Source of the DNA: an uncultured virus (IMG/VR IMGVR_UViG_3300008113_010842)
Taxonomy: Duplodnaviria > Heunggongvirae > Uroviricota > Caudoviricetes
Virus record (IMG/VR): IMGVR_UViG_3300008113_010842
Length of the DNA: 60,918 bases
Reading direction: 5' to 3' (one strand)
Positions 29,139 through 55,401 of the stretch are shown piece after piece. The first letter of the stretch is position 1, and each line of letters starts with the position of its first letter. The position numbers were made by a program, and so were the translations under genes. The notes below the pieces were generated by a model, which saw only the letters and a list, made by a program, of their open reading frames with translations, was not told the origin of the DNA and did no database searches.

Positions 29139-29238
29139 TTTGGACATTTAAAATATATCCGTATATTTGTAATCATATTAATAAATGATAAAAAATAGAT
29201 ATAAAATTTGGTAGATTTAAAACTTTTTACTAATTTTG
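29139..29238 (+). promoter_or_regulatory. Two tandem Bacteroidota-type promoters upstream of leader 1
   Basis: TTTG(29139)-N19-TATATTTG and TTTG(29207)-N20-TAATTTTG. Confidence 0.75.
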
Positions 29239-29294
29239 TATAAAATAAGAACAAAATAACAAAAGAGAATTAAACAATTTAATATATAATAAAA

Positions 29295-29393
29295 ATGAGA
29301 GCAATTCGTAAACATAGCACATTTAGTAAATCGTCTTGGTTTAGTCACCAAGGTTCGGTACTAAAAGAGTATTGCTCAAATTTAAAGGTATAA
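29295..29393 (+). CDS. Attenuator leader peptide 1, MRAIRKHSTFSKSSWFSHQGSVLKEYCSNLKV
   Basis: R/K/H/S/F/W codon patch matches array 1; contains AGGTTCGG, complementary to the terminator arm. Confidence 0.8.
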   Translation: MRAIRKHSTFSKSSWFSHQGSVLKEYCSNLKV

Positions 29394-29417
29394 AAACTTA
29401 TAAAGACAATATAATTT

Positions 29418-29449
29418 AACCCGAACCTCGAAAGAAGTTCGGGTTTTTT
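29418..29449 (+). terminator. Attenuator terminator 1
   Basis: AACCCGAAC-CTCGAAAGAA-GTTCGGGTT followed by a T-tract. Confidence 0.85.
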
Positions 29450-29473: not shown

Positions 29474-29878
29474 TTGAAACAGATAAGAGATTATAATTAT
29501 AAAATTTCCGAAAGTGGAGAAATAATAAATTTAAGTAATGGTAAAGTTAAAGGTCAATGGATAAACTCAAGTGGTTATTATTGTGTTGAATTAACTATTG
29601 ATAAGTGTAAAAAGAAAAAGTTTTTAACACATAGATTAGTCGCTGAAACATATTTGGAATTACCAATTATTGAAAAAAAAGTACAAATTGATCACATAAA
29701 TAGAAATAGAATAGATAATCACTTTTCAAATTTAAGATGGGTTACATCATCTGAGAATTGTAAAAATAAAAATAGAGTTAAAGTAAAAATGGATGATATT
29801 AATAGCATAATTGAAATGTTCAAAAATGGAGAAACTATTGATAATATTTATAAAATTATAAATTGTTTTTGTCTGTAA
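29474..29878 (+). CDS. NUMOD4/HNH homing endonuclease
   Basis: YKISESGEI, GYYCVEL, HRLVAETY, IDHINRNRIDNHFSNLRWVT..EN; TTG start. Confidence 0.85.
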   Translation: MKQIRDYNYKISESGEIINLSNGKVKGQWINSSGYYCVELTIDKCKKKKFLTHRLVAETYLELPIIEKKVQIDHINRNRIDNHFSNLRWVTSSENCKNKNRVKVKMDDINSIIEMFKNGETIDNIYKIINCFCL

Positions 29879-29921: not shown

Positions 29922-29994
29922 GGAACGGTGGCAGATCAGGTGATTGCGCTGGACTGAAAATCCAGAGGAGTGGGTTCGATACCCACCCGTTCCA
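29922..29994 (+). tRNA. tRNA-Phe(GAA)
   Basis: Cloverleaf; anticodon arm CTGGA-CTGAAAA-TCCAG. Confidence 0.9.
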
Positions 29995-30002
29995 CAAATT
30001 TT

Positions 30003-30075
30003 GGACTCGTAGCTTAATCGGGAAAGCACTCCGCTTTTAACGGAGGGAGAGTGGGATCGTAACCCACCGGGTCCA
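30003..30075 (+). tRNA. tRNA-Lys(TTT)
   Basis: CTCCG-CTTTTAA-CGGAG. Confidence 0.9.
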
Positions 30076-30082
30076 CTAATAT

Positions 30083-30155
30083 GATTTCGTAGCTCAGTTG
30101 GTAGAGCACCTCACTTTTAATGAGGGGGTCGTGGGTTCGAACCCCACCGGGATCA
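30083..30155 (+). tRNA. tRNA-Lys(TTT)
   Basis: CCTCA-CTTTTAA-TGAGG. Confidence 0.92.
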
Positions 30156-30157
30156 CT

Positions 30158-30230
30158 GTGAATGTAGCTCAGTTGGTAGAGCGCTTGATTGTGATTCAAG
30201 AGGTAGCGGGATCGTAACCCGTCATTCACC
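30158..30230 (+). tRNA. tRNA-His(GTG)
   Basis: CTTGA-TTGTGAT-TCAAG; C73 discriminator. Confidence 0.92.
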
Positions 30231-30235
30231 AAATT

Positions 30236-30306
30236 ACGTCATACAGACAAGGTGTCGGTCAGGCCTCCAAAACCTCGACGGGTGGGTTCAATTCCTACAT
30301 GGCGTG
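30236..30306 (+). tRNA. tRNA-Trp(CCA), atypical D and anticodon arms
   Basis: Acceptor ACGTCAT/ATGGCGT; loop CTCCAAA; G73. Confidence 0.7.
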
Positions 30307-30314
30307 CTAATAAT

Positions 30315-30442
30315 GGGGATGTAGCTCAGTGGTAGAGAAAACTATCTCTTTTGAAATTTTACCTCGTAAGAGTGTTGATTAAAAGAGTTACTTCGTATAT
30401 TTTGAAATTATAAGGTCGTTGGTTCGAATCCAACCATCCCCA
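30315..30442 (+). tRNA. tRNA-like RNA with ~56-nt insertion (apparent anticodon TGA)
   Basis: Perfect acceptor GGGGATG/CATCCCC, D arm and T arm GTTGG-TTCGAAT-CCAAC; hairpin insert between D and anticodon arms. Confidence 0.6.
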
Positions 30443-30450
30443 CAAAAAAT

Positions 30451-30523
30451 AGTTCCATCGTCTAATGGATGAGGACAGGTCGCTACGAACGATCAAGTGA
30501 AGGTTCGACTCCTTCTGGAACTA
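30451..30523 (+). tRNA. tRNA-Arg(ACG)
   Basis: GGTCG-CTACGAA-CGATC. Confidence 0.88.
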
Positions 30524-30529
30524 CAAATT

Positions 30530-30614
30530 GGAAGAGTAATTAAGCTGGCGCTTGACCTAGTCTTGAAAACTAGTGGTACTTTCGTGGTATGGGGATCGAT
30601 ACCTCACTCTTCCG
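30530..30614 (+). tRNA. tRNA-Ser(TGA)
   Basis: CTAGT-CTTGAAA-ACTAG; long variable arm; G73. Confidence 0.88.
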
Positions 30615-30619
30615 CAAAA

Positions 30620-30705
30620 GGAGAATAAACTAATCTGGTGATTAGGACCGCCTGCTAAGCGAGTTGCACGTGCAATTGTGTGGGGTTCAATTCCTCTGTT
30701 CTCCG
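30620..30705 (+). tRNA. tRNA-Ser(GCT)
   Basis: Loop CTGCTAA; long variable arm; G73. Confidence 0.85.
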
Positions 30706-30711
30706 CTCTGA

Positions 30712-40198: not shown

Positions 40199-40270
40199 TG
40201 CGGGGTGGAGTAGTGGAAGCTCGCTAGGCTCATAACCTAGAGGTCGCAGGTTCGAGTCCTGCCCCCGCTA
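40199..40270 (+). tRNA. Initiator-type tRNA-Met(CAT)
   Basis: 1:72 mismatch, fMet-like GCGGGGTGGAG 5' end, CTAGG-CTCATAA-CCTAG. Confidence 0.88.
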
Positions 40271-40289
40271 CAAAAAAATAGATAAAATA

Positions 40290-40321
40290 TTTGGTAGATT
40301 TAAAAAGTCTATTTATATTTG
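40290..40321 (+). promoter_or_regulatory. Bacteroidota-type promoter for leader 2
   Basis: TTTG-GTAGA..(N20)-TATATTTG. Confidence 0.8.
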
Positions 40322-40341
40322 TAAAATAAAAAATAAAAATA

Positions 40342-40410
40342 ATGAATACAATTTCAACATATTATTATAAGGAGAGCAAAGTCTCTGTCAGACGAGTAAG
40401 TATGTCGTAA
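40342..40410 (+). CDS. Attenuator leader peptide 2, MNTISTYYYKESKVSVRRVSMS
   Basis: TAT-TAT-TAT-AAG-GAG patch matches the Tyr/Glu array; TGTCAGAC complements the terminator arm. Confidence 0.8.
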   Translation: MNTISTYYYKESKVSVRRVSMS

Positions 40411-40433
40411 TTGAAATATATTATACAAACTTT

Positions 40434-40467
40434 AAACCCAGTCTGACAATTCAGACTGGGTTTTTTT
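40434..40467 (+). terminator. Attenuator terminator 2
   Basis: AAACCCAGTCTGA-CAAT-TCAGACTGGGTTT plus T-tract. Confidence 0.9.
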
Positions 40468-40470
40468 ATT

Positions 40471-40538
40471 GGGTTGAGTTATGGTGACGGCCGGATCTGT
40501 AAAATCCTAGCAGTTGAGTTCGAGTCTCAGGCAACCCA
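40471..40538 (+). tRNA. Atypical short tRNA-Tyr(GTA)-like
   Basis: Acceptor GGGTTG/CAACCC, GGAT-CTGTAAA-ATCC, T arm; reduced D arm, no long variable arm. Confidence 0.6.
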
Positions 40539-40543
40539 CAAAT

Positions 40544-40615
40544 GTTCCGTTCGTCTAGCGGTAGGACATCTCCCTTTCAAGGAGAAGGTCACGGGTTCGA
40601 ATCCCGTACGGAATA
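40544..40615 (+). tRNA. tRNA-Glu(TTC)
   Basis: TCTCC-CTTTCAA-GGAGA. Confidence 0.9.
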
Positions 40616-40631
40616 CAAGAATTAAAAAAGA

Positions 40632-40663
40632 TTTGGTAGATTAAAAATATTTACTTATCTTTG
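40632..40663 (+). promoter_or_regulatory. Internal Bacteroidota-type promoter within array 2
   Basis: TTTG-GTAGA..(N20)-TATCTTTG. Confidence 0.8.
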
Positions 40664-40680
40664 TAAAACAAAAAACAAAT

Positions 40681-40752
40681 GGTCCCATCGTCTAATGGTT
40701 AGGACGTTAGGTTTTCATCCTAGAAATCGGAGTTCGATCCTCCGTGGGACTA
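40681..40752 (+). tRNA. tRNA-Glu(TTC)
   Basis: TTAGG-TTTTCAT-CCTAG. Confidence 0.9.
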
Positions 40753-40847
40753 CAAAAGTCGGAGTAATTAACCGACTCTAACAAGAAGATGGTTCATATA
40801 GCTTAAAGAGATTTGCTAGCACTAATTTCTGGAAGTCTTCTTGATTA

Positions 40848-40923
40848 ACTACTTATGGTGTAAATTGGATTGCACGCGGGTCATTCGGCCCGAGGGTTGT
40901 AGGTTCGAGTCCTATGGGTAGTT
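40848..40923 (+). tRNA. tRNA-like RNA of undetermined identity (6-nt anticodon loop CATTCG)
   Basis: Acceptor ACTACTT/GGGTAGT, D arm, CGGGT-CATTCG-GCCCG, T arm GTAGG-TTCGAGT-CCTAT. Confidence 0.6.
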
Positions 40924-40930
40924 CAAATAT

Positions 40931-41012
40931 TGGAAGGTGGGTGAGTGGCTAAAACCGGCAGACTGTAAATCTGCTCTCTTTGAGTACGGGGGTTCGAATC
41001 CCTCCCTTCCAA
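40931..41012 (+). tRNA. tRNA-Tyr(GTA)
   Basis: GCAGA-CTGTAAA-TCTGC; class II variable arm. Confidence 0.92.
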
Positions 41013-41040
41013 CTTTTTTTATTTTCTTCATAAAACAAAG

Positions 41041-42078
41041 ATGGAGAATGAAGTTGTAATAATAACATCACATGCTAATACAGATTTTAAGTTAGACATT
41101 TTAAATGAATGTATCCAATATATTAAGTCATTTGGGTATCAAATCATTTTATCATCACATATTTCTGTTCCGGATTCTATACTGGATGATGTAGATTTTT
41201 TTGTCTATGATAAAGAAAATAGAATTATTAATTATTGGGAATATCAAGAAATTCCATCAGGCTATTATAAATACATAAATTTTGATGAATATCAGCATAC
41301 TATATCATCTGAGTTTGACCATGGTTATTCTGTATTGAGACTTATAAGAAATGGACTGAGCTTAGCGAGTATCAATGGATTTACAAAATCACATATTGTA
41401 GATTACGATTATATAATAAAAGATTCAAATTTTTTTAGAGAAAACACAAAATATTTAGGTAATCTTTATGATATCATAGGTTATCGATGTCATGATTATT
41501 ACTTTACTACAGGTATTTTTTCAGTTGTTTGTGATAAAATACTACCAGTATTACAAAGTATAAATTCAGTTGAGGCTTATAGCCAAATTCATTTAGAAAC
41601 AATAGATGATAATAAACTGACAAATAGTGGTGTTTTAGAAAACATATTTTTTTATTTAATTAAAAAAAATAATCTGAGTTTTTTTAATATCGAAGAAAAA
41701 GATTTAGACTTAGAATTGAATGAATTTGATAAAATAAATGTTTTTAATAATTTTTATTTGATTCAAGGAACTTCTATTGAGATTTTCAAATCAACCGATG
41801 GCTTTTTTGACTACCTAACTTTGCTTAATTATGGAACAATCTTAGAATATATAGAGATTCATTATAAAGAAAATTGTTCTATAAAAATAAATTACAATAA
41901 TATCTATGAAAAATCACAATCCGAAAATTCACATATTTCTATTTTAAAATTACCAGATTGGTTAAAAGATATTGAATTTACAATTGAGGCCATAGGTTAT
42001 GGGAAAAAGACTATAAGAAAAAACGAGAATAAAGCACAATGTCAAATAAAAAATCAAAATATTATTTTTGAAATTTAA
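41041..42078 (+). CDS. Hypothetical protein, possibly glycosyltransferase-related
   Basis: 345 aa; IILSSH...DFFVYDKEN...HGYSV...DYD pattern. Confidence 0.7.
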   Translation: MENEVVIITSHANTDFKLDILNECIQYIKSFGYQIILSSHISVPDSILDDVDFFVYDKENRIINYWEYQEIPSGYYKYINFDEYQHTISSEFDHGYSVLRLIRNGLSLASINGFTKSHIVDYDYIIKDSNFFRENTKYLGNLYDIIGYRCHDYYFTTGIFSVVCDKILPVLQSINSVEAYSQIHLETIDDNKLTNSGVLENIFFYLIKKNNLSFFNIEEKDLDLELNEFDKINVFNNFYLIQGTSIEIFKSTDGFFDYLTLLNYGTILEYIEIHYKENCSIKINYNNIYEKSQSENSHISILKLPDWLKDIEFTIEAIGYGKKTIRKNENKAQCQIKNQNIIFEI

Positions 42079-42145
42079 AAAAAATAACTAATTTTGTAAA
42101 AAGAAAGATAAAACTTTTTATATATAACAACATATAATAGAAACA

Positions 42146-42229
42146 ATGAAAAATTTAACTAACATATCACAAGCAGTTATAGCGACAGGCGCGGGGCGTT
42201 TGGTCGAGAGACTGAGTTATGTTATGTAA
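42146..42229 (+). CDS. Attenuator leader peptide 3, MKNLTNISQAVIATGAGRLVERLSYVM
   Basis: GCA-GTT-ATA-GCG-ACA-GGC-GCG-GGG patch matches the Ile(TAT)/Gly/Ala array; GAGACTGAGTTA complements the terminator arm. Confidence 0.8.
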   Translation: MKNLTNISQAVIATGAGRLVERLSYVM

Positions 42230-42253
42230 GATTTTGACTTTACATATTTATTT

Positions 42254-42283
42254 AACCCAGTCTCAAAAAGATTGGGTTTTTTT
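42254..42283 (+). terminator. Attenuator terminator 3
   Basis: AACCCAGTCT-CAAAA-AGATTGGGTT plus T-tract. Confidence 0.88.
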
Positions 42284-42287
42284 ATTT

Positions 42288-42361
42288 TGGTGAGTAGCTT
42301 AGACGGTAGAAGCACGTGTCTTATACACACGAGATAGTGGGTTCGATACCCACCTCACCAA
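42288..42361 (+). tRNA. tRNA-Ile(TAT)
   Basis: CGTGT-CTTATAC-ACACG. Confidence 0.85.
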
Positions 42362-42366
42362 CAAAA

Positions 42367-42438
42367 GCGGGTATCGTATAATGGTTATTACACCGGCCTT
42401 CCAAGTCGGTGATGTCAGTTCGATTCTGGTTACCCGCA
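42367..42438 (+). tRNA. tRNA-Gly(TCC)
   Basis: CCGGC-CTTCCAA-GTCGG. Confidence 0.88.
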
Positions 42439-42442
42439 CTAC

Positions 42443-42518
42443 GGGCTAGCATGTTCCAAGGCTTCGGCGACTTACCCTTGCAAGGTAGGTGTGGTGGGTT
42501 CGATTCCCATCTGGTCCA
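42443..42518 (+). tRNA. tRNA-Ala(TGC)
   Basis: TTACC-CTTGCAA-GGTAG; G3:U70 pair. Confidence 0.8.
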
Positions 42519-42528
42519 CAAAAAATAA

Positions 42529-42603
42529 GCGAGAGTAGCTCAGTGGTAGAATGTCTGCTTGCCAAGCAGAAGGTCGCGGGTTCGAATCCCGTCTCTCGCT
42601 CCA
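42529..42603 (+). tRNA. tRNA-Gly(GCC)
   Basis: TCTGC-TTGCCAA-GCAGA; U73; encoded CCA. Confidence 0.93.
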
Positions 42604-42607
42604 ATAT

Positions 42608-42644
42608 GCCGGTTGACCCACGTTGAATCGCGGTGCCGGCTCCA
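42608..42644 (+). ncRNA. tRNA minihelix-like RNA ending UCCA
   Basis: GCCGGT/GCCGGC stem, inner T-arm-like hairpin, 3' TCCA. Confidence 0.45.
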
Positions 42645-42717
42645 GGGGGATTAGCTCATTTGGCGGAGCGTTTGAATGGCATTCAAAAGGTGACGAGTTC
42701 GATCCTCGTATCCTCCA
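42645..42717 (+). tRNA. tRNA-Ala(GGC)
   Basis: TTTGA-ATGGCAT-TCAAA; G3:U70 pair. Confidence 0.9.
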
Positions 42718-42737
42718 CAAAAATTAATATATACTAA

Positions 42738-45286: not shown

Positions 45287-46693
45287 ATGAAGTATATGAG
45301 AAATTATCACTCTTTTATAAAAGAGTCGAAAAAACAAATAGGTAAAAACGCATTAATTGTTGAAAAGCAAGTATTAAAAGAATTTTCATCTGATTTTTGG
45401 GGTCTTTGTTTAAGATCTTCAATTTTTACAAATGAAGAAAAAACATACATTGAAAATAATCTTACTAATAAAAAAGTTTCACTTTTAAATGAAGAATGGG
45501 ATTGGTTAGATAAAGCGGTTGATTGGGCTAAAGATAAAGGTGAAAAAATGTTAAACTTTGTATCTGATAAAATTAAAGCTGTAAAAAACGGACTTAAAGA
45601 CTTTGTTAGTTCTATGGTGGGACTTGCTAAGAAGTTATTTTTAGCTGGATTAAACGGTGCATTATTACAAGCTGCTAAGTTTAAACAGAAAGTTTCAGGA
45701 GATGGTAAAGTTAAAAAACAAATTCAAGATTTAGATCCTGAAAAATCCAAAAACGAAATTGAAGATTTAAAAAAGACTTTTCAATTCTGGGCACCTGGTA
45801 AAACAGCAGCTGAAGCTAAACCAGCGGTCGATAAAGCAGGTGGTCAAATTGAGGCTAAGATTAAATCTGCAGAAGGAGAAGCTGTTTCATCAACTGAGAA
45901 AAATTTAACAGAAGCTGAACAAGAAGCAAAAAATGAATCAGTATCAAATATTATTTATTCAACTGGTGATGATGTTTTAGAAAGTTTCTATAATCTTTCT
46001 TTAATAAAAGAAGCTGAAGAAGTACCAGAAGGTGGTGAAGAAAAAAAGACAACTGGTCAAAAATGTATTGACTGGCTTTTAGGATTTTTAGGTCAAGAAA
46101 AAATGGATCCTGAAGCTAAAGCTGGTAAAAAATTATTTTGGTGGGGTAAGTTGTTCTTAAAGATTTTAGCTACTTGTTTAAGTCCTGTATTAAAAATAGT
46201 TGAGGCATTGGTAAAAACAGGAGCAAATTTAGCTCTTAAGGGAGTTTCGATGATTACTGGAGCATTAGGTGGTCCAGGTGCTTTTGAATTCGCTTTACTT
46301 GGAGGACTTTGTGGCGGTATTGTTGGTATTATATATGATACAATAATGTTATTTGGAGGCGAAGCAGGAGGAGCTGACACAATGGCTGCTGTTAAAAAAT
46401 GGTTAGCACATGCTGTAAATGAATCATTAGAATTATTTCCGTCTTATAAAACATTAAAATATATTATGGCTGGTTTCTGTGCTGGCATGACACTTTGGCA
46501 TGTTATTGAAGAAATTAAACACTTAGCGCACGGAGGACATGGAGAACACAAAGAAGGAGAGGAACACGGTGAAGAGGCAAAACCAGGAGATCCTGTAAAA
46601 CCAGGTGAAAAGCCAGCTCCTATAAAACCAGGTGAAAAGCCAGTAGAAGGTGAAAAACCAGCAGCCCCTGGAACTAAACCAGCTGTAGCTTAA
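45287..46693 (+). CDS. Hypothetical protein with Gly-rich hydrophobic helices and C-terminal KPGEKP repeats
   Basis: 468 aa; N-terminal MKYMRNYHSFIKES motif. Confidence 0.8.
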   Translation: MKYMRNYHSFIKESKKQIGKNALIVEKQVLKEFSSDFWGLCLRSSIFTNEEKTYIENNLTNKKVSLLNEEWDWLDKAVDWAKDKGEKMLNFVSDKIKAVKNGLKDFVSSMVGLAKKLFLAGLNGALLQAAKFKQKVSGDGKVKKQIQDLDPEKSKNEIEDLKKTFQFWAPGKTAAEAKPAVDKAGGQIEAKIKSAEGEAVSSTEKNLTEAEQEAKNESVSNIIYSTGDDVLESFYNLSLIKEAEEVPEGGEEKKTTGQKCIDWLLGFLGQEKMDPEAKAGKKLFWWGKLFLKILATCLSPVLKIVEALVKTGANLALKGVSMITGALGGPGAFEFALLGGLCGGIVGIIYDTIMLFGGEAGGADTMAAVKKWLAHAVNESLELFPSYKTLKYIMAGFCAGMTLWHVIEEIKHLAHGGHGEHKEGEEHGEEAKPGDPVKPGEKPAPIKPGEKPVEGEKPAAPGTKPAVA

Positions 46694-46710
46694 AAATATT
46701 TTAAATAAAA

Positions 46711-46742
46711 TTTGGTAGAATTAAAACTTTTATCTAAATTTG
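46711..46742 (+). promoter_or_regulatory. Bacteroidota-type promoter for leader 4
   Basis: TTTG-GTAGA..(N20)-TAAATTTG. Confidence 0.8.
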
Positions 46743-46799
46743 TATAAAATAATGACAAAAAAGTCAAAAGAGACAATTAATTTATAATATATAACAACA

Positions 46800-46913
46800 A
46801 TGAGAACAAATACGACAAATATGATGAACCTGACACTCAATGTGGTGAATATTACGTTATGTAATATTAGACCTTCTGAGGGTTCCTTCCTATTTAGAAA
46901 ATTTGTCTCGTGA
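46800..46913 (+). CDS. Attenuator leader peptide 4, MRTNTTNMMNLTLNVVNITLCNIRPSEGSFLFRKFVS
   Basis: Codons 2-24 encode only R/T/N/M/L/V/I/C, the amino acids of array 4; TCTGAGGGTTC is the exact complement of the terminator arm. Confidence 0.88.
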   Translation: MRTNTTNMMNLTLNVVNITLCNIRPSEGSFLFRKFVS

Positions 46914-46944
46914 ATGTGACGTATTTATAACTAAATATAAAAAG

Positions 46945-46974
46945 AACCCTCAGATAAAAATCTGAGGGTTTTTT
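46945..46974 (+). terminator. Attenuator terminator 4
   Basis: AACCCTCAGAT-AAAA-ATCTGAGGGTT plus T-tract. Confidence 0.9.
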
Positions 46975-46989
46975 GTTTTAATAAAATTT

Positions 46990-47062
46990 GGCTCCTTCGT
47001 TCAACGGGACAGGACATCGCTCTTCTAAAGCGAGGATACAGGTTCGAATCCTGTAGGAGCTA
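46990..47062 (+). tRNA. tRNA-Arg(TCT)
   Basis: TCGCT-CTTCTAA-AGCGA. Confidence 0.9.
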
Positions 47063-47069
47063 CTAAAAT

Positions 47070-47158
47070 GGGCTTGTAGCTGATTTGGTTTTAGCTGGTG
47101 ACTGTTAATCACTGTATGAAAAATTGAAATAAAGTAGGTTCGAATCCTGCCTGGCCCG
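47070..47158 (+). tRNA. tRNA-Asn(GTT) with ~20-nt variable region
   Basis: GGTGA-CTGTTAA-TCACT; G73. Confidence 0.75.
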
Positions 47159-47169
47159 CAAAAATAAAT

Positions 47170-47240
47170 GTCCTGATGGCGTAATGGGAGCGTGTTAGTG
47201 TTACATACTAACGGTACTGGTTCGAGTCCAGTTCAGGATA
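47170..47240 (+). tRNA. tRNA-Val(TAC)
   Basis: TTAGT-GTTACAT-ACTAA. Confidence 0.82.
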
Positions 47241-47247
47241 CTAAAAT

Positions 47248-47320
47248 TGTCAGTTAGCTCATTTGGTAGAGCACTTGTCTGATACACAAGAGGTGGTGGG
47301 ATCGTAACCCGCACTGACAA
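47248..47320 (+). tRNA. tRNA-Ile(GAT)
   Basis: CTTGT-CTGATAC-ACAAG. Confidence 0.9.
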
Positions 47321-47326
47321 CAAATT

Positions 47327-47399
47327 GACACCGTGTCTGAATGGCTTAGGTCCCAGTCTGCAAAACTGTGGTATGTCGGTTCGAACCCGACCGGTGTCT
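47327..47399 (+). tRNA. tRNA-Cys(GCA)
   Basis: CAGT-CTGCAAA-ACTG; U73. Confidence 0.88.
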
Positions 47400-47405
47400 C
47401 AATAA

Positions 47406-47477
47406 GCTTCTTAAGCATTAATGGTGATGCGCTAGTCTTGTAAACTAGAGAAATCGGATCGTTACCGGTAAGAAGCT
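47406..47477 (+). tRNA. tRNA-Thr(TGT)
   Basis: CTAGT-CTTGTAA-ACTAG. Confidence 0.88.
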
Positions 47478-47480
47478 CAA

Positions 47481-47597
47481 TAACAGATGGTGATTGAAAG
47501 TGTTACTTCGTTTAATGGATAAACAATTGACTTCTAATCAATACTTCGGTGGTTCGATTCCACCAGTAAAAACCTCTTTCAGGACTTTCCTCTGTTA
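47481..47597 (+). tRNA. tRNA-Arg(TCT)-like core (47501-47572) inside an extended hairpin
   Basis: ATTGA-CTTCTAA-TCAAT, T arm GGTGG-TTCGATT-CCACC; flanks TAACAGA/TCTGTTA and TGAAAG/CTTTCA pair. Confidence 0.55.
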
Positions 47598-47602
47598 TAT
47601 CT

Positions 47603-47693
47603 GCCTCAGTGGCGAAATTTGGTTGAAACGCGCTAGACTTAGGATCTAGTACCCAAGTGGCAAACGTTGTCGGTTCGAGTCCGACCTGAGGTA
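47603..47693 (+). tRNA. tRNA-Leu(TAG)
   Basis: CTAGA-CTTAGGA-TCTAG; long variable arm. Confidence 0.9.
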
Positions 47694-47700
47694 CAAAATT

Positions 47701-47791
47701 GCTCCAGTGGCGAAACTGGTTGAAACGCATGGGACTTAAAATCCCATACCCTATGAGGTGAACGTTGTCGGTTCGAATCCGACCTGGAGTA
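47701..47791 (+). tRNA. tRNA-Leu(TAA)
   Basis: TGGGA-CTTAAAA-TCCCA; long variable arm. Confidence 0.9.
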
Positions 47792-47797
47792 CAAAAT

Positions 47798-47867
47798 GCC
47801 GCGGCTTAGTGGAAAAGGACATTGGCTCATATCCTGTGTTAAGTGAGTTCGAACCTCATACGCGGTA
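47798..47867 (+). tRNA. Atypical tRNA with CAT anticodon (Met or Ile2)
   Basis: Acceptor GCCGCG/CGCGGT, loop CTCATAT, reduced D arm, elongated anticodon stem. Confidence 0.6.
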
Positions 47868-47875
47868 CAATATAA

Positions 47876-47948
47876 GCCCCTGTGACGTAATTGGTAGTCG
47901 TATTCGTTTCAAATGCGGAGTGTCCGAGTTCGAATCTCGGTAGGGGTA
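47876..47948 (+). tRNA. tRNA with CAA (Leu) anticodon but short variable loop
   Basis: TTCGT-TTCAAAT-GCGGA; 4-nt variable loop. Confidence 0.65.
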
Positions 47949-47981
47949 CAAACCAGATATATAAATAAAAAAAAATATATT

Positions 47982-54885: not shown

Positions 54886-54978
54886 TTATATTTTTTTTAA
54901 TTAAAACTTATTTCTATATTTGTAGTATAATTTTGACAAATAATTAAAAGAGGTAAAAATAATTTAATATATACTAAA

Positions 54979-55074
54979 ATGAACAACGTAATTGTAAATA
55001 TCGCAGTAGTTAACCCACAACCGCAGGATCAGGATCGTGTGAGAGTGGCTAACTATGTATTTACAATAAGTTAA
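54979..55074 (+). CDS. Attenuator leader peptide 5, MNNVIVNIAVVNPQPQDQDRVRVANYVFTIS
   Basis: CCA-CAA-CCG-CAG-GAT-CAG-GAT patch matches the Gln/Asp/Pro array; TGGCTAACT pairs with the terminator arm. Confidence 0.85.
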   Translation: MNNVIVNIAVVNPQPQDQDRVRVANYVFTIS

Positions 55075-55097
55075 TGTTTAATTAAAAACGAATTTGT

Positions 55098-55132
55098 AAA
55101 ACCCGGTTAGTCAAAATCTAATCGGGTTTTTT
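55098..55132 (+). terminator. Attenuator terminator 5
   Basis: AAAACCCGGTTAG-TCAAAAT-CTAATCGGGTTTT plus T-tract. Confidence 0.88.
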
Positions 55133-55142
55133 GTTATTATAT

Positions 55143-55215
55143 TGTCGGGTCGTCTAGTTTGGCAGGACGCAAGATTTTGGCTCTTGAAACACAGGTTCGA
55201 TGCCTGTCTCGACAT
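55143..55215 (+). tRNA. tRNA-Gln(TTG)
   Basis: CAAGA-TTTTGGC-TCTTG; U1:A72. Confidence 0.88.
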
Positions 55216-55222
55216 CAAATAC

Positions 55223-55295
55223 GGATGTGAGGTCAAACGGTTAAGATGTCTGCCTGTCACGCAGTTCGGAGCGGGTTCAACTCCCGTCACGTCCG
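55223..55295 (+). tRNA. tRNA-Asp(GTC)
   Basis: CTGC-CTGTCAC-GCAG; G73. Confidence 0.88.
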
Positions 55296-55304
55296 CTAAA
55301 ATTT

Positions 55305-55387
55305 CGGGATGTAGCCTAGAGGTTACGCAAGTTAGAGGCACTTGGTTTGGGACCAAGACGACGCAGGTTCGATTCCTGTCATCCCGA
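55305..55387 (+). tRNA. tRNA-Pro(TGG) with enlarged D loop
   Basis: CTTGG-TTTGGGA-CCAAG; C1:G72. Confidence 0.85.
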
Positions 55388-55401
55388 CAAAAATAAACGA
55401 T

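Follow-up and report, generated by a model that had tools for sequence, protein, structure and literature searches.

The leader region of tRNA array 4

The DNA analysed here, referred to as the window, is a stretch of 60,918 nucleotides (nt) from an uncultured virus of the Caudoviricetes (IMG/VR record IMGVR_UViG_3300008113_010842). ARAGORN found 27 transfer RNA (tRNA) genes in it, and more at lower thresholds, in five arrays that all lie on the + strand. Our subject is the region in front of the fourth array, in which a short leader open reading frame (ORF) and an intrinsic terminator precede 11 tRNA genes. We refer to the region and its array as unit 4, which contains the following features.

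46711..46742, + strand: promoter-like site of the Bacteroides type (-33 box 46711-46714, 20-nt spacer, -7 box 46735-46742)
46785..46794, + strand: AT box (9-mer), 15 nt upstream of the leader-4 ATG
46800..46913, + strand: leader ORF 4 (ATG 46800, TGA 46911-46913, 37 sense codons), with homologous ORFs in 9 other loci
46803..46871, + strand: regulatory stretch, codons 2-24, composed solely of the eight amino acids of array 4 (23/23 codons)
46848..46868, + strand: small hairpin inside the regulatory stretch (8 base pairs (bp), 5-nt loop)
46875..46897, + strand: 5' strand of the predicted antiterminator (46875-46885 and 46891-46897), in codons 26-33 of the leader ORF, right after the regulatory stretch
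46931..46954, + strand: 3' strand of the predicted antiterminator (46931-46937 and 46944-46954), the second part overlapping the 5' arm of the terminator
46945..46979, + strand: intrinsic terminator (stem 46945-46955 with 46960-46970, 4-nt loop, T-run from 46969; -16.3 kcal/mol)
46990..47949, + strand: tRNA array 4, 11 genes (ARAGORN, Rfam)

Codons 2-24 of leader ORF 4 encode solely Arg (AGA), Thr, Asn, Met, Leu, Val, Ile (ATT) and Cys. A preliminary description, made from the letters of this DNA alone, had singled out this run and equated its eight amino acids with those of the downstream array. Both statements held when checked on the sequence: the tRNAs are, in order, Arg(tct), Asn(gtt), Val(tac), Ile(gat), Cys(gca), Thr(tgt), Arg(tct), Leu(tag), Leu(taa), Met(cat) and Leu(caa), and together they cover the same eight amino acids. 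All of the tRNAs named in that description are present, but the second Arg(tct) had been overlooked. The gene with the CAT anticodon (47796-47869) scores low, and the tRNA-Asn gene (47070-47159) is odd in that it is 90 nt long and carries a long insertion.

The eight amino acids have a background frequency of 0.422 in the window (15,019 codons, 39 long ORFs). The probability of a 23/23 run, a calculation already proposed in the preliminary description, is 0.422^23 = 2.4e-9. Under strict wobble rules the anticodons of array 4 read 22 of the 23 codons; the frequency of this codon set is 0.305, which gives p = 7e-11. We compared the run with 392 ATG-started ORFs of 15-80 codons taken from all six frames, where the next-longest stretch drawn from the set had 13 codons. 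When all frames of the whole window were considered, the leader-4 run was again the longest, reaching 27 codons with the upstream in-frame codons included, and the next was 15. None of 200,000 simulated 36-codon ORFs reached 23, the maximum being 18.

These numbers bear on the possibility that the codon match arose by chance, or as a by-product of AT-rich composition, in an ORF that is not translated. The GC content of the window is 24-39% in 2-kilobase (kb) steps, and Asn, Ile, Leu and Thr are common in a genome of 28% GC, the eight-amino-acid set making up 42% of codons. However, the value of 2.4e-9 already accounts for this frequency, neither the other ORFs nor the simulations produced a comparable run, and the pattern recurs in all of the arrays and in 10/10 homologues. 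We consider an origin by chance or composition exceedingly improbable.

The homologues were gathered from viral contigs by DNA pattern. The comparison covered ten leader-4 loci, one in the window, one in each of two GenBank phages and seven on IMG/VR contigs of 55-508 kb; in every one of them the ORF and the terminator are present, together with an array of the Asn/Leu/Val/Ile/Thr/Arg/Met type. The GenBank phages, LR756502.1 (642 kb) and LR745206.1 (635 kb), are the nearest records; both are ‘uncultured phage’ assemblies with about 75% identity to the window over parts of the region. From codon 2 to a conserved Arg codon, 21-24 of 22-25 codons belong to the set in all ten loci, and the sole residue outside the set is a Lys at codon 2 in 4/10. 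The tails of the homologous ORFs are poorly conserved, with just 2-8 of 11-17 codons in the set.

The two-box promoter pattern found in front of leader 4 has 14 matches in the window against 6.2 expected, and these include sites before leaders 1, 2, 3 and 4. Its -7 consensus is that of Bacteroides promoters as given in PMC4747536, applied here to an uncultured phage. From the position of the two boxes, transcription of unit 4 would start near 46749. The AT-box 9-mer occurs 15 times against 4.3 expected (sites include 29280, 42725, 46785, 53767, 54965 and 56347). It lies 13-31 nt upstream of ordinary ORF starts and also precedes leader 1 (29280), leader 4 and leader 5 (54965). Thus, leader 4 bears the same upstream signal as real genes, and the AT box could be a phage promoter or a translation-start signal. 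The 5' untranslated part of leader 4 also contains a small hairpin (46763-46774), in which positions 46763 and 46774 change jointly (G:C to C:G) in related-phage contigs, and the IMG/VR homologues behave alike.

Alternative pairing of the terminator arm

The T-run of terminator 4 ends 11 nt upstream of tRNA-Arg, leaving no space for another promoter ahead of the tRNAs. On the ten homologues, 96.4% of the alignment cells of the terminator stem pair, and five of its 11 pairs are altered on both sides. The preliminary description had reported that 46875-46885 is a perfect 11-nt complement of 46944-46954 and that further complementarity extends the helix. We verified the 11-nt match on the sequence, and the extension consists of 7 nt (46891-46897 with 46931-46937). 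The antiterminator duplex with the arm of its own unit was calculated at -20.4 kcal/mol, compared with -7.1 to -9.3 for duplexes with the arms of the other four units. In the minimum-energy fold lacking the 3' arm of the terminator, the ORF segment of unit 4 pairs with 10 of the 11 arm bases. The stop codon of leader 4 sits in the apical loop of the antiterminator.

The antiterminator is also maintained in the homologues, where 84.2% of cells pair, compared with 26-52% when the partner strand is slid. Two of its pairs, both outside the terminator stem, show two-sided changes, each of them in four sequences. In L011, the most diverged homologue, inspection by eye showed that the terminator and the ORF segment have both been replaced by different sequence that is again mutually complementary. 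MAFFT misaligned the ORF segment of L011, and most of the unpaired antiterminator cells come from that row. The small hairpin inside the regulatory stretch (46848-46868) folds in 10/10 homologues, with 8 bp in six and 6 bp in four, and one of its pairs is altered on both sides. Judged from the sequence, this hairpin may be a pause or anti-antiterminator element, and part of the strong nucleotide conservation of the regulatory stretch may serve RNA structure. The anatomy of unit 4, the statistics of its codon match, its conservation and its covariation are established by these comparisons.

We think it likely that unit 4 is a ribosome-mediated attenuator, predicted here from sequence, that gates tRNA array 4 according to the speed at which the array's own codons are decoded. 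This agrees with the reading in the preliminary description, which is supported by the upstream promoter, by the presence of five cassettes in the window, by the retention of the cassette in relatives and by the two-sided changes in the antiterminator. We infer that the leader is translated, that two foldings compete kinetically and that the physiological signal is as follows. Transcription would start at the host-type promoter (46711-46742), and a ribosome would initiate at the ATG at 46800 and read 23 codons whose decoding requires precisely the tRNAs of the downstream array. Were any of them scarce, not yet made, destroyed or uncharged, the ribosome would linger within 46803-46871, leaving 46875-46897 bare as RNA polymerase makes 46931-46954. 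Pairing of the two segments (11 + 7 bp) would then sequester the 5' arm of the terminator, and polymerase would pass the T-run into tRNA-Arg 11 nt further on. Conversely, with fast decoding the ribosome would traverse 46875-46897 and reach the stop codon at 46911; the hairpin of the terminator (46945-46955 with 46960-46970) would form, and transcription would end near 46975-46979. Fast translation may block the antiterminator sterically, or it may allow 46877-46885 to re-pair with codons 9-13. As a net outcome, each tRNA set would feed back negatively on the transcription of its own genes.

Matched leaders in the window and in related genomes

The other four arrays of the window are each preceded by a unit of the same kind.

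29207..29449, + strand: sister unit 1, with promoter, leader ORF 29295-29393 and terminator 29418-29449
40290..40467, + strand: sister unit 2, with promoter, leader ORF 40342-40410 and terminator 40435-40467
42067..42283, + strand: sister unit 3, with promoter, leader ORF 42146-42229 and terminator 42254-42283
54965..55132, + strand: sister unit 5, with AT box, leader ORF 54979-55074 and terminator 55100-55132

Leader 1 precedes an array of Phe, Lys (two), His, Trp, Arg(acg) and Ser (two) tRNAs at 29922-30706, and 13 of its codons 5-18 (13/14) belong to that set (score 6.19). Array 2 (Tyr, Glu twice, one odd tRNA, Tyr; 40471-41013) is matched by 4/5 codons of leader 2 (codons 7-11; score 3.05), and array 3 (Ile(tat), Gly twice, Ala twice; 42288-42718) by 6/8 codons of leader 3 (codons 10-17), both Ile codons being ATA. 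Array 5 (Gln, Asp and Leu(gag); 55143-55388) is matched by 5/6 codons of leader 5 (codons 14-19; score 3.00). The scores are best-segment binomial enrichments, computed for each leader against each array. Leader 4 had been called the clearest of the five cases and is so by this measure, scoring 8.62 compared with 3.00 to 6.19 for the other four. Together the five units of the window cover 19 amino acids.

Several features of the sister arrays are unusual. An HNH_3/NUMOD4 homing-endonuclease ORF (29474-29878) separates the terminator of leader 1 from array 1; the matching array is nearer to the terminator in the relatives, at 14 nt in LR745206.1 and at 91 nt, measured to the first ARAGORN tRNA, in LR756502.1. 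The tRNA gene at 30315-30443 was found only when ARAGORN was allowed an intron (44 nt), and that at 40848-40924 has an anticodon loop that ARAGORN cannot name. A further gene, tRNA-Met(cat) at 40199-40271, is the only one with a promoter-like site but neither a leader ORF nor a terminator, and the same layout is found in LR756502.1. Its 1:72 position is unpaired in the ARAGORN drawing, a feature that marks bacterial initiator tRNA, so that this gene is presumably initiator-like. Since an initiator cannot be sensed through elongation codons, a leaderless tRNA-Met fits the attenuator model. Other ORFs nearby encode a thioredoxin, an HNH homing endonuclease, a glycosyltransferase and nucleases.

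When we scanned for terminator hairpins with + strand tRNAs behind them, we obtained 19 units, five in the window, seven in LR756502.1 and seven in LR745206.1. In 19/19 of these, one short ATG-started ORF ends shortly before the 5' arm of the terminator. The 508-kb IMG/VR contig, with loci L011 and L015-L017, served as a fourth, more diverged genome; it has six arrays, each closely preceded by a terminator in front of which a short ORF ends. When the leaders were permuted among the arrays, the true pairing was the single best in every genome (1/120 for the window, 1/5040 for LR756502.1, 1/5040 for LR745206.1 and 1/720 for the 508-kb contig), although these genomes are kin and the tests are not independent. 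At the amino-acid level a leader's own array gave its highest score in 5/5 cases in the window, 6/7 in LR756502.1, 6/7 in LR745206.1 and 5/6 in the 508-kb contig; at the codon level the corresponding values were 5/5, 5/7 and 6/7 for the first three. The exceptions were the Pro/Asp leaders, which also hold Gln codons and have a Gln array directly downstream of them. Arrays composed only of 3-4 tRNA-Gln genes are preceded by leaders with runs of Gln codons, seven of them consecutive in LR756502.1.

Leader composition also follows the arrays where these have been split or fused. The Phe/His/Trp/Lys and the Arg/Ser tRNAs occupy separate arrays in the three relatives, and each of these arrays stands behind a leader that matches it; the window has a single array for both groups, and the 13/14 matching codons of its single leader mix both sets. 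The 508-kb contig has a fused array of Glu/Tyr and Ile(tat)/Gly/Ala tRNAs behind a single leader that mixes all five amino acids, and the window counterpart consists of two arrays with two leaders. This contig also encodes tRNAs with the anticodons tta and cta (L016 1121-1192 and L019 1031-1103), which would read TAA and TAG and hint at stop-codon recoding in its phage.

The match extends to synonymous codons. Ile codons are ATA in 10/13 cases before arrays with only Ile(tat), compared with 0/10 before Ile(gat) arrays (Fisher 3.6e-4). Similarly, 9/9 Arg codons are CGN before Arg(acg/gcg/tcg) arrays and 6/7 are AGA before Arg(tct) arrays (Fisher 8.7e-4); in the ORFs of the window as a whole, AGA makes up 85% of Arg codons and CGN about 9%. 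Because codon choice follows the isoacceptors of the array, the signal would be tRNA supply rather than amino-acid supply, and the codon usage of the leaders speaks for tRNA species, rather than amino acids, as what is sensed. The same attenuator could instead respond to amino-acid starvation through uncharged tRNA, as in biosynthetic operons, with tRNA transcription raised when the host starves. Stalling alone cannot distinguish a missing tRNA from an uncharged one, and in most units the match at the amino-acid level equals that at the codon level. However, extra tRNA does not relieve amino-acid starvation, and amino-acid sensing would not select synonymous codons that track isoacceptors, such as the ATA codons or the CGN codons that appear despite the prevalence of AGA. 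We consider starvation unlikely to be the signal.

As a wider proposal, which we regard as possible rather than probable, giant phages may split nearly the whole genetic code into 5-7 tRNA regulons, each gated by a codon-matched leader and together measuring decoding isoacceptor by isoacceptor. A set would be transcribed only when decoding of its codons is slow, for instance early in infection or upon destruction of tRNAs by host anticodon nucleases, and only the initiator tRNA would be exempt. Such a system would be the first example of feedback from decoding to tRNA transcription by attenuation, and its leaders would be a direct read-out of the tRNAs that a phage expects to run short.

A search of viral contigs with the 758-amino-acid neighbour protein as the query returned no related loci. 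Leader 4 is covered by related-phage contigs in four metatranscriptome runs (three studies), for example over 46693-46983 and over 46625-46980, the latter continuing past the terminator. Such RNA-library contigs do not reveal ends, strand or level and may stem from contaminating DNA, and we draw no inference from them.

Weaknesses of the model, related systems and implications

A number of results weigh against the attenuator model. Within unit 4, CTC is the sole regulatory codon that array 4 does not read; it needs Leu(gag), which is encoded in array 5. The pairing of 46877-46885 back to codons 9-13, our candidate anti-antiterminator (-19.6 kcal/mol), was only weakly better than shuffled sequences (z = -1.78), and RNAalifold returned no conserved anti-antiterminator helix in the 5' half of nine homologues. 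If a ribosome rested at the leader-4 stop codon, it would leave 46875-46885 itself uncovered. When each codon in turn was masked by a ribosome, equilibrium folding gave a terminator probability of at least 0.92 except at codons 5-7. Among the sister units, a promoter-like two-box match (40632-40663) inside array 2, before the second tRNA-Glu, would bypass attenuator 2. The first half of leader 5 (codons 2-12, 54982-55014) is rich in Asn, Val and Ile and fits array 4 with a score of 2.92, about the same as the 3.00 for its own array. This leader also retains two Pro codons though the window is without a Pro tRNA; its orthologue in LR745206.1, ahead of a Pro/Asp array, has four. The Arg/Ser leaders of the two GenBank phages contain AGT Ser codons, and ARAGORN found no Ser(gct) in these phages. 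Across the 19 units, the antiterminator was present in the minimum-energy fold lacking the terminator 3' arm in 10 and is thus weak in several, and a leader's own terminator arm ranked first by duplex energy in nine. When the arms were permuted, the true pairing ranked 365/5040 in LR756502.1. On the other side, the corresponding values were 1/120 in the window and 7/5040 in LR745206.1. The antiterminator is therefore strong in the leader-4 type and weak in some other types.

Equilibrium folding with ribosome masks was dropped as a model of the switch, which it does not reproduce. As the terminator is favoured at equilibrium nearly throughout, the switch must be kinetic, as in classical attenuators. 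The same folding results, together with the weak antiterminators in several sister units, would suit a terminator that is constitutive and leaky or that ends a separate small transcript, with an ORF that has no sensing role and tRNAs that are made by unregulated read-through. This would leave unexplained why leaders in four genomes match the codons of their own arrays, why leader composition tracks the splits and fusions of arrays, and why complementarity between the ORF and the terminator arm has been kept through two-sided changes. The variant with a separate small gene also sits poorly with the ORF tails, which are poorly conserved, unlike those expected of a functional peptide. We find a leaky or unrelated terminator very unlikely and retain the attenuator as our model.

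Leader-peptide attenuators that respond to several amino acids are known from enterobacteria, including those of ilvGMEDA (Ile, Leu and Val codons) and thr (Thr and Ile codons), and hisL carries a run of His codons. Unit 4 has four of the defining sequence features of such elements, namely a leader ORF behind a promoter, cognate codons, a terminator and an antiterminator that shares a strand with it. Like the attenuators of amino-acid operons, it combines a promoter, a short ORF rich in regulatory codons, an intrinsic terminator and alternative pairing of the terminator 5' arm, a general principle described in PMC1183508. Like the multivalent examples it would sense several amino acids at once, and the relatives' Gln-only units, in which as many as seven Gln codons follow one another, resemble the histidine leader. 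In contrast to amino-acid operons, the regulated genes are 11 tRNA genes rather than genes for biosynthetic enzymes or synthetases, the loop would close on decoding capacity, codon choice is isoacceptor-specific, and the element sits in a giant phage with Bacteroides-type promoters. Rfam leader families, Leu_leader and Trp_leader among them, matched unit 4 only below their cut-offs, if at all (best hits: His_leader, 23.7 bits against 49; Thr_leader, 21.3 against 55). At the gathering level Rfam found only tRNA across the window, and a scan by E-value gave only sub-threshold terminator-like matches.

In E. coli the leader peptide of pheST, the phenylalanyl-tRNA synthetase operon, responds to the charging of one tRNA. 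Unit 4 resembles pheST in that genes of the translation apparatus would be controlled by stalling at their own amino-acid codons; unlike pheST, it would control a whole set of tRNA genes through eight amino acids in one leader. It is like T-box riboswitches in that the state of a specific tRNA would be read and a terminator and antiterminator switched. T-boxes, however, sense uncharged tRNA by direct binding, with no translation involved, and their targets are synthetase and amino-acid genes. No T-box matched at the gathering level in the window or at E <= 10 in 46650-47000.

Control of tRNA genes is generally believed to act chiefly at the promoter, and the reason for their presence in phages is still a matter of debate. 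The explanations considered include codon compensation and escape from tRNA-targeting defences, as set out in PMC10264068 and PMC11555353. We found no published case of attenuation of tRNA genes in a search that took in parts of a premature-terminator survey (PMC2965389) and of PMC3082878, with subscription journals and supplements outside its reach. If the attenuator model is correct, unit 4 would broaden leader-peptide attenuation to include genes for non-coding RNA, phages and hosts whose promoters are of the Bacteroides type, and it would offer compact, programmable sensors for the supply of individual tRNA species. The debate over phage tRNAs would become testable, because the leaders would list, codon by codon, what the phage treats as limiting. 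The phage would be monitoring decoding and topping up tRNAs on demand.

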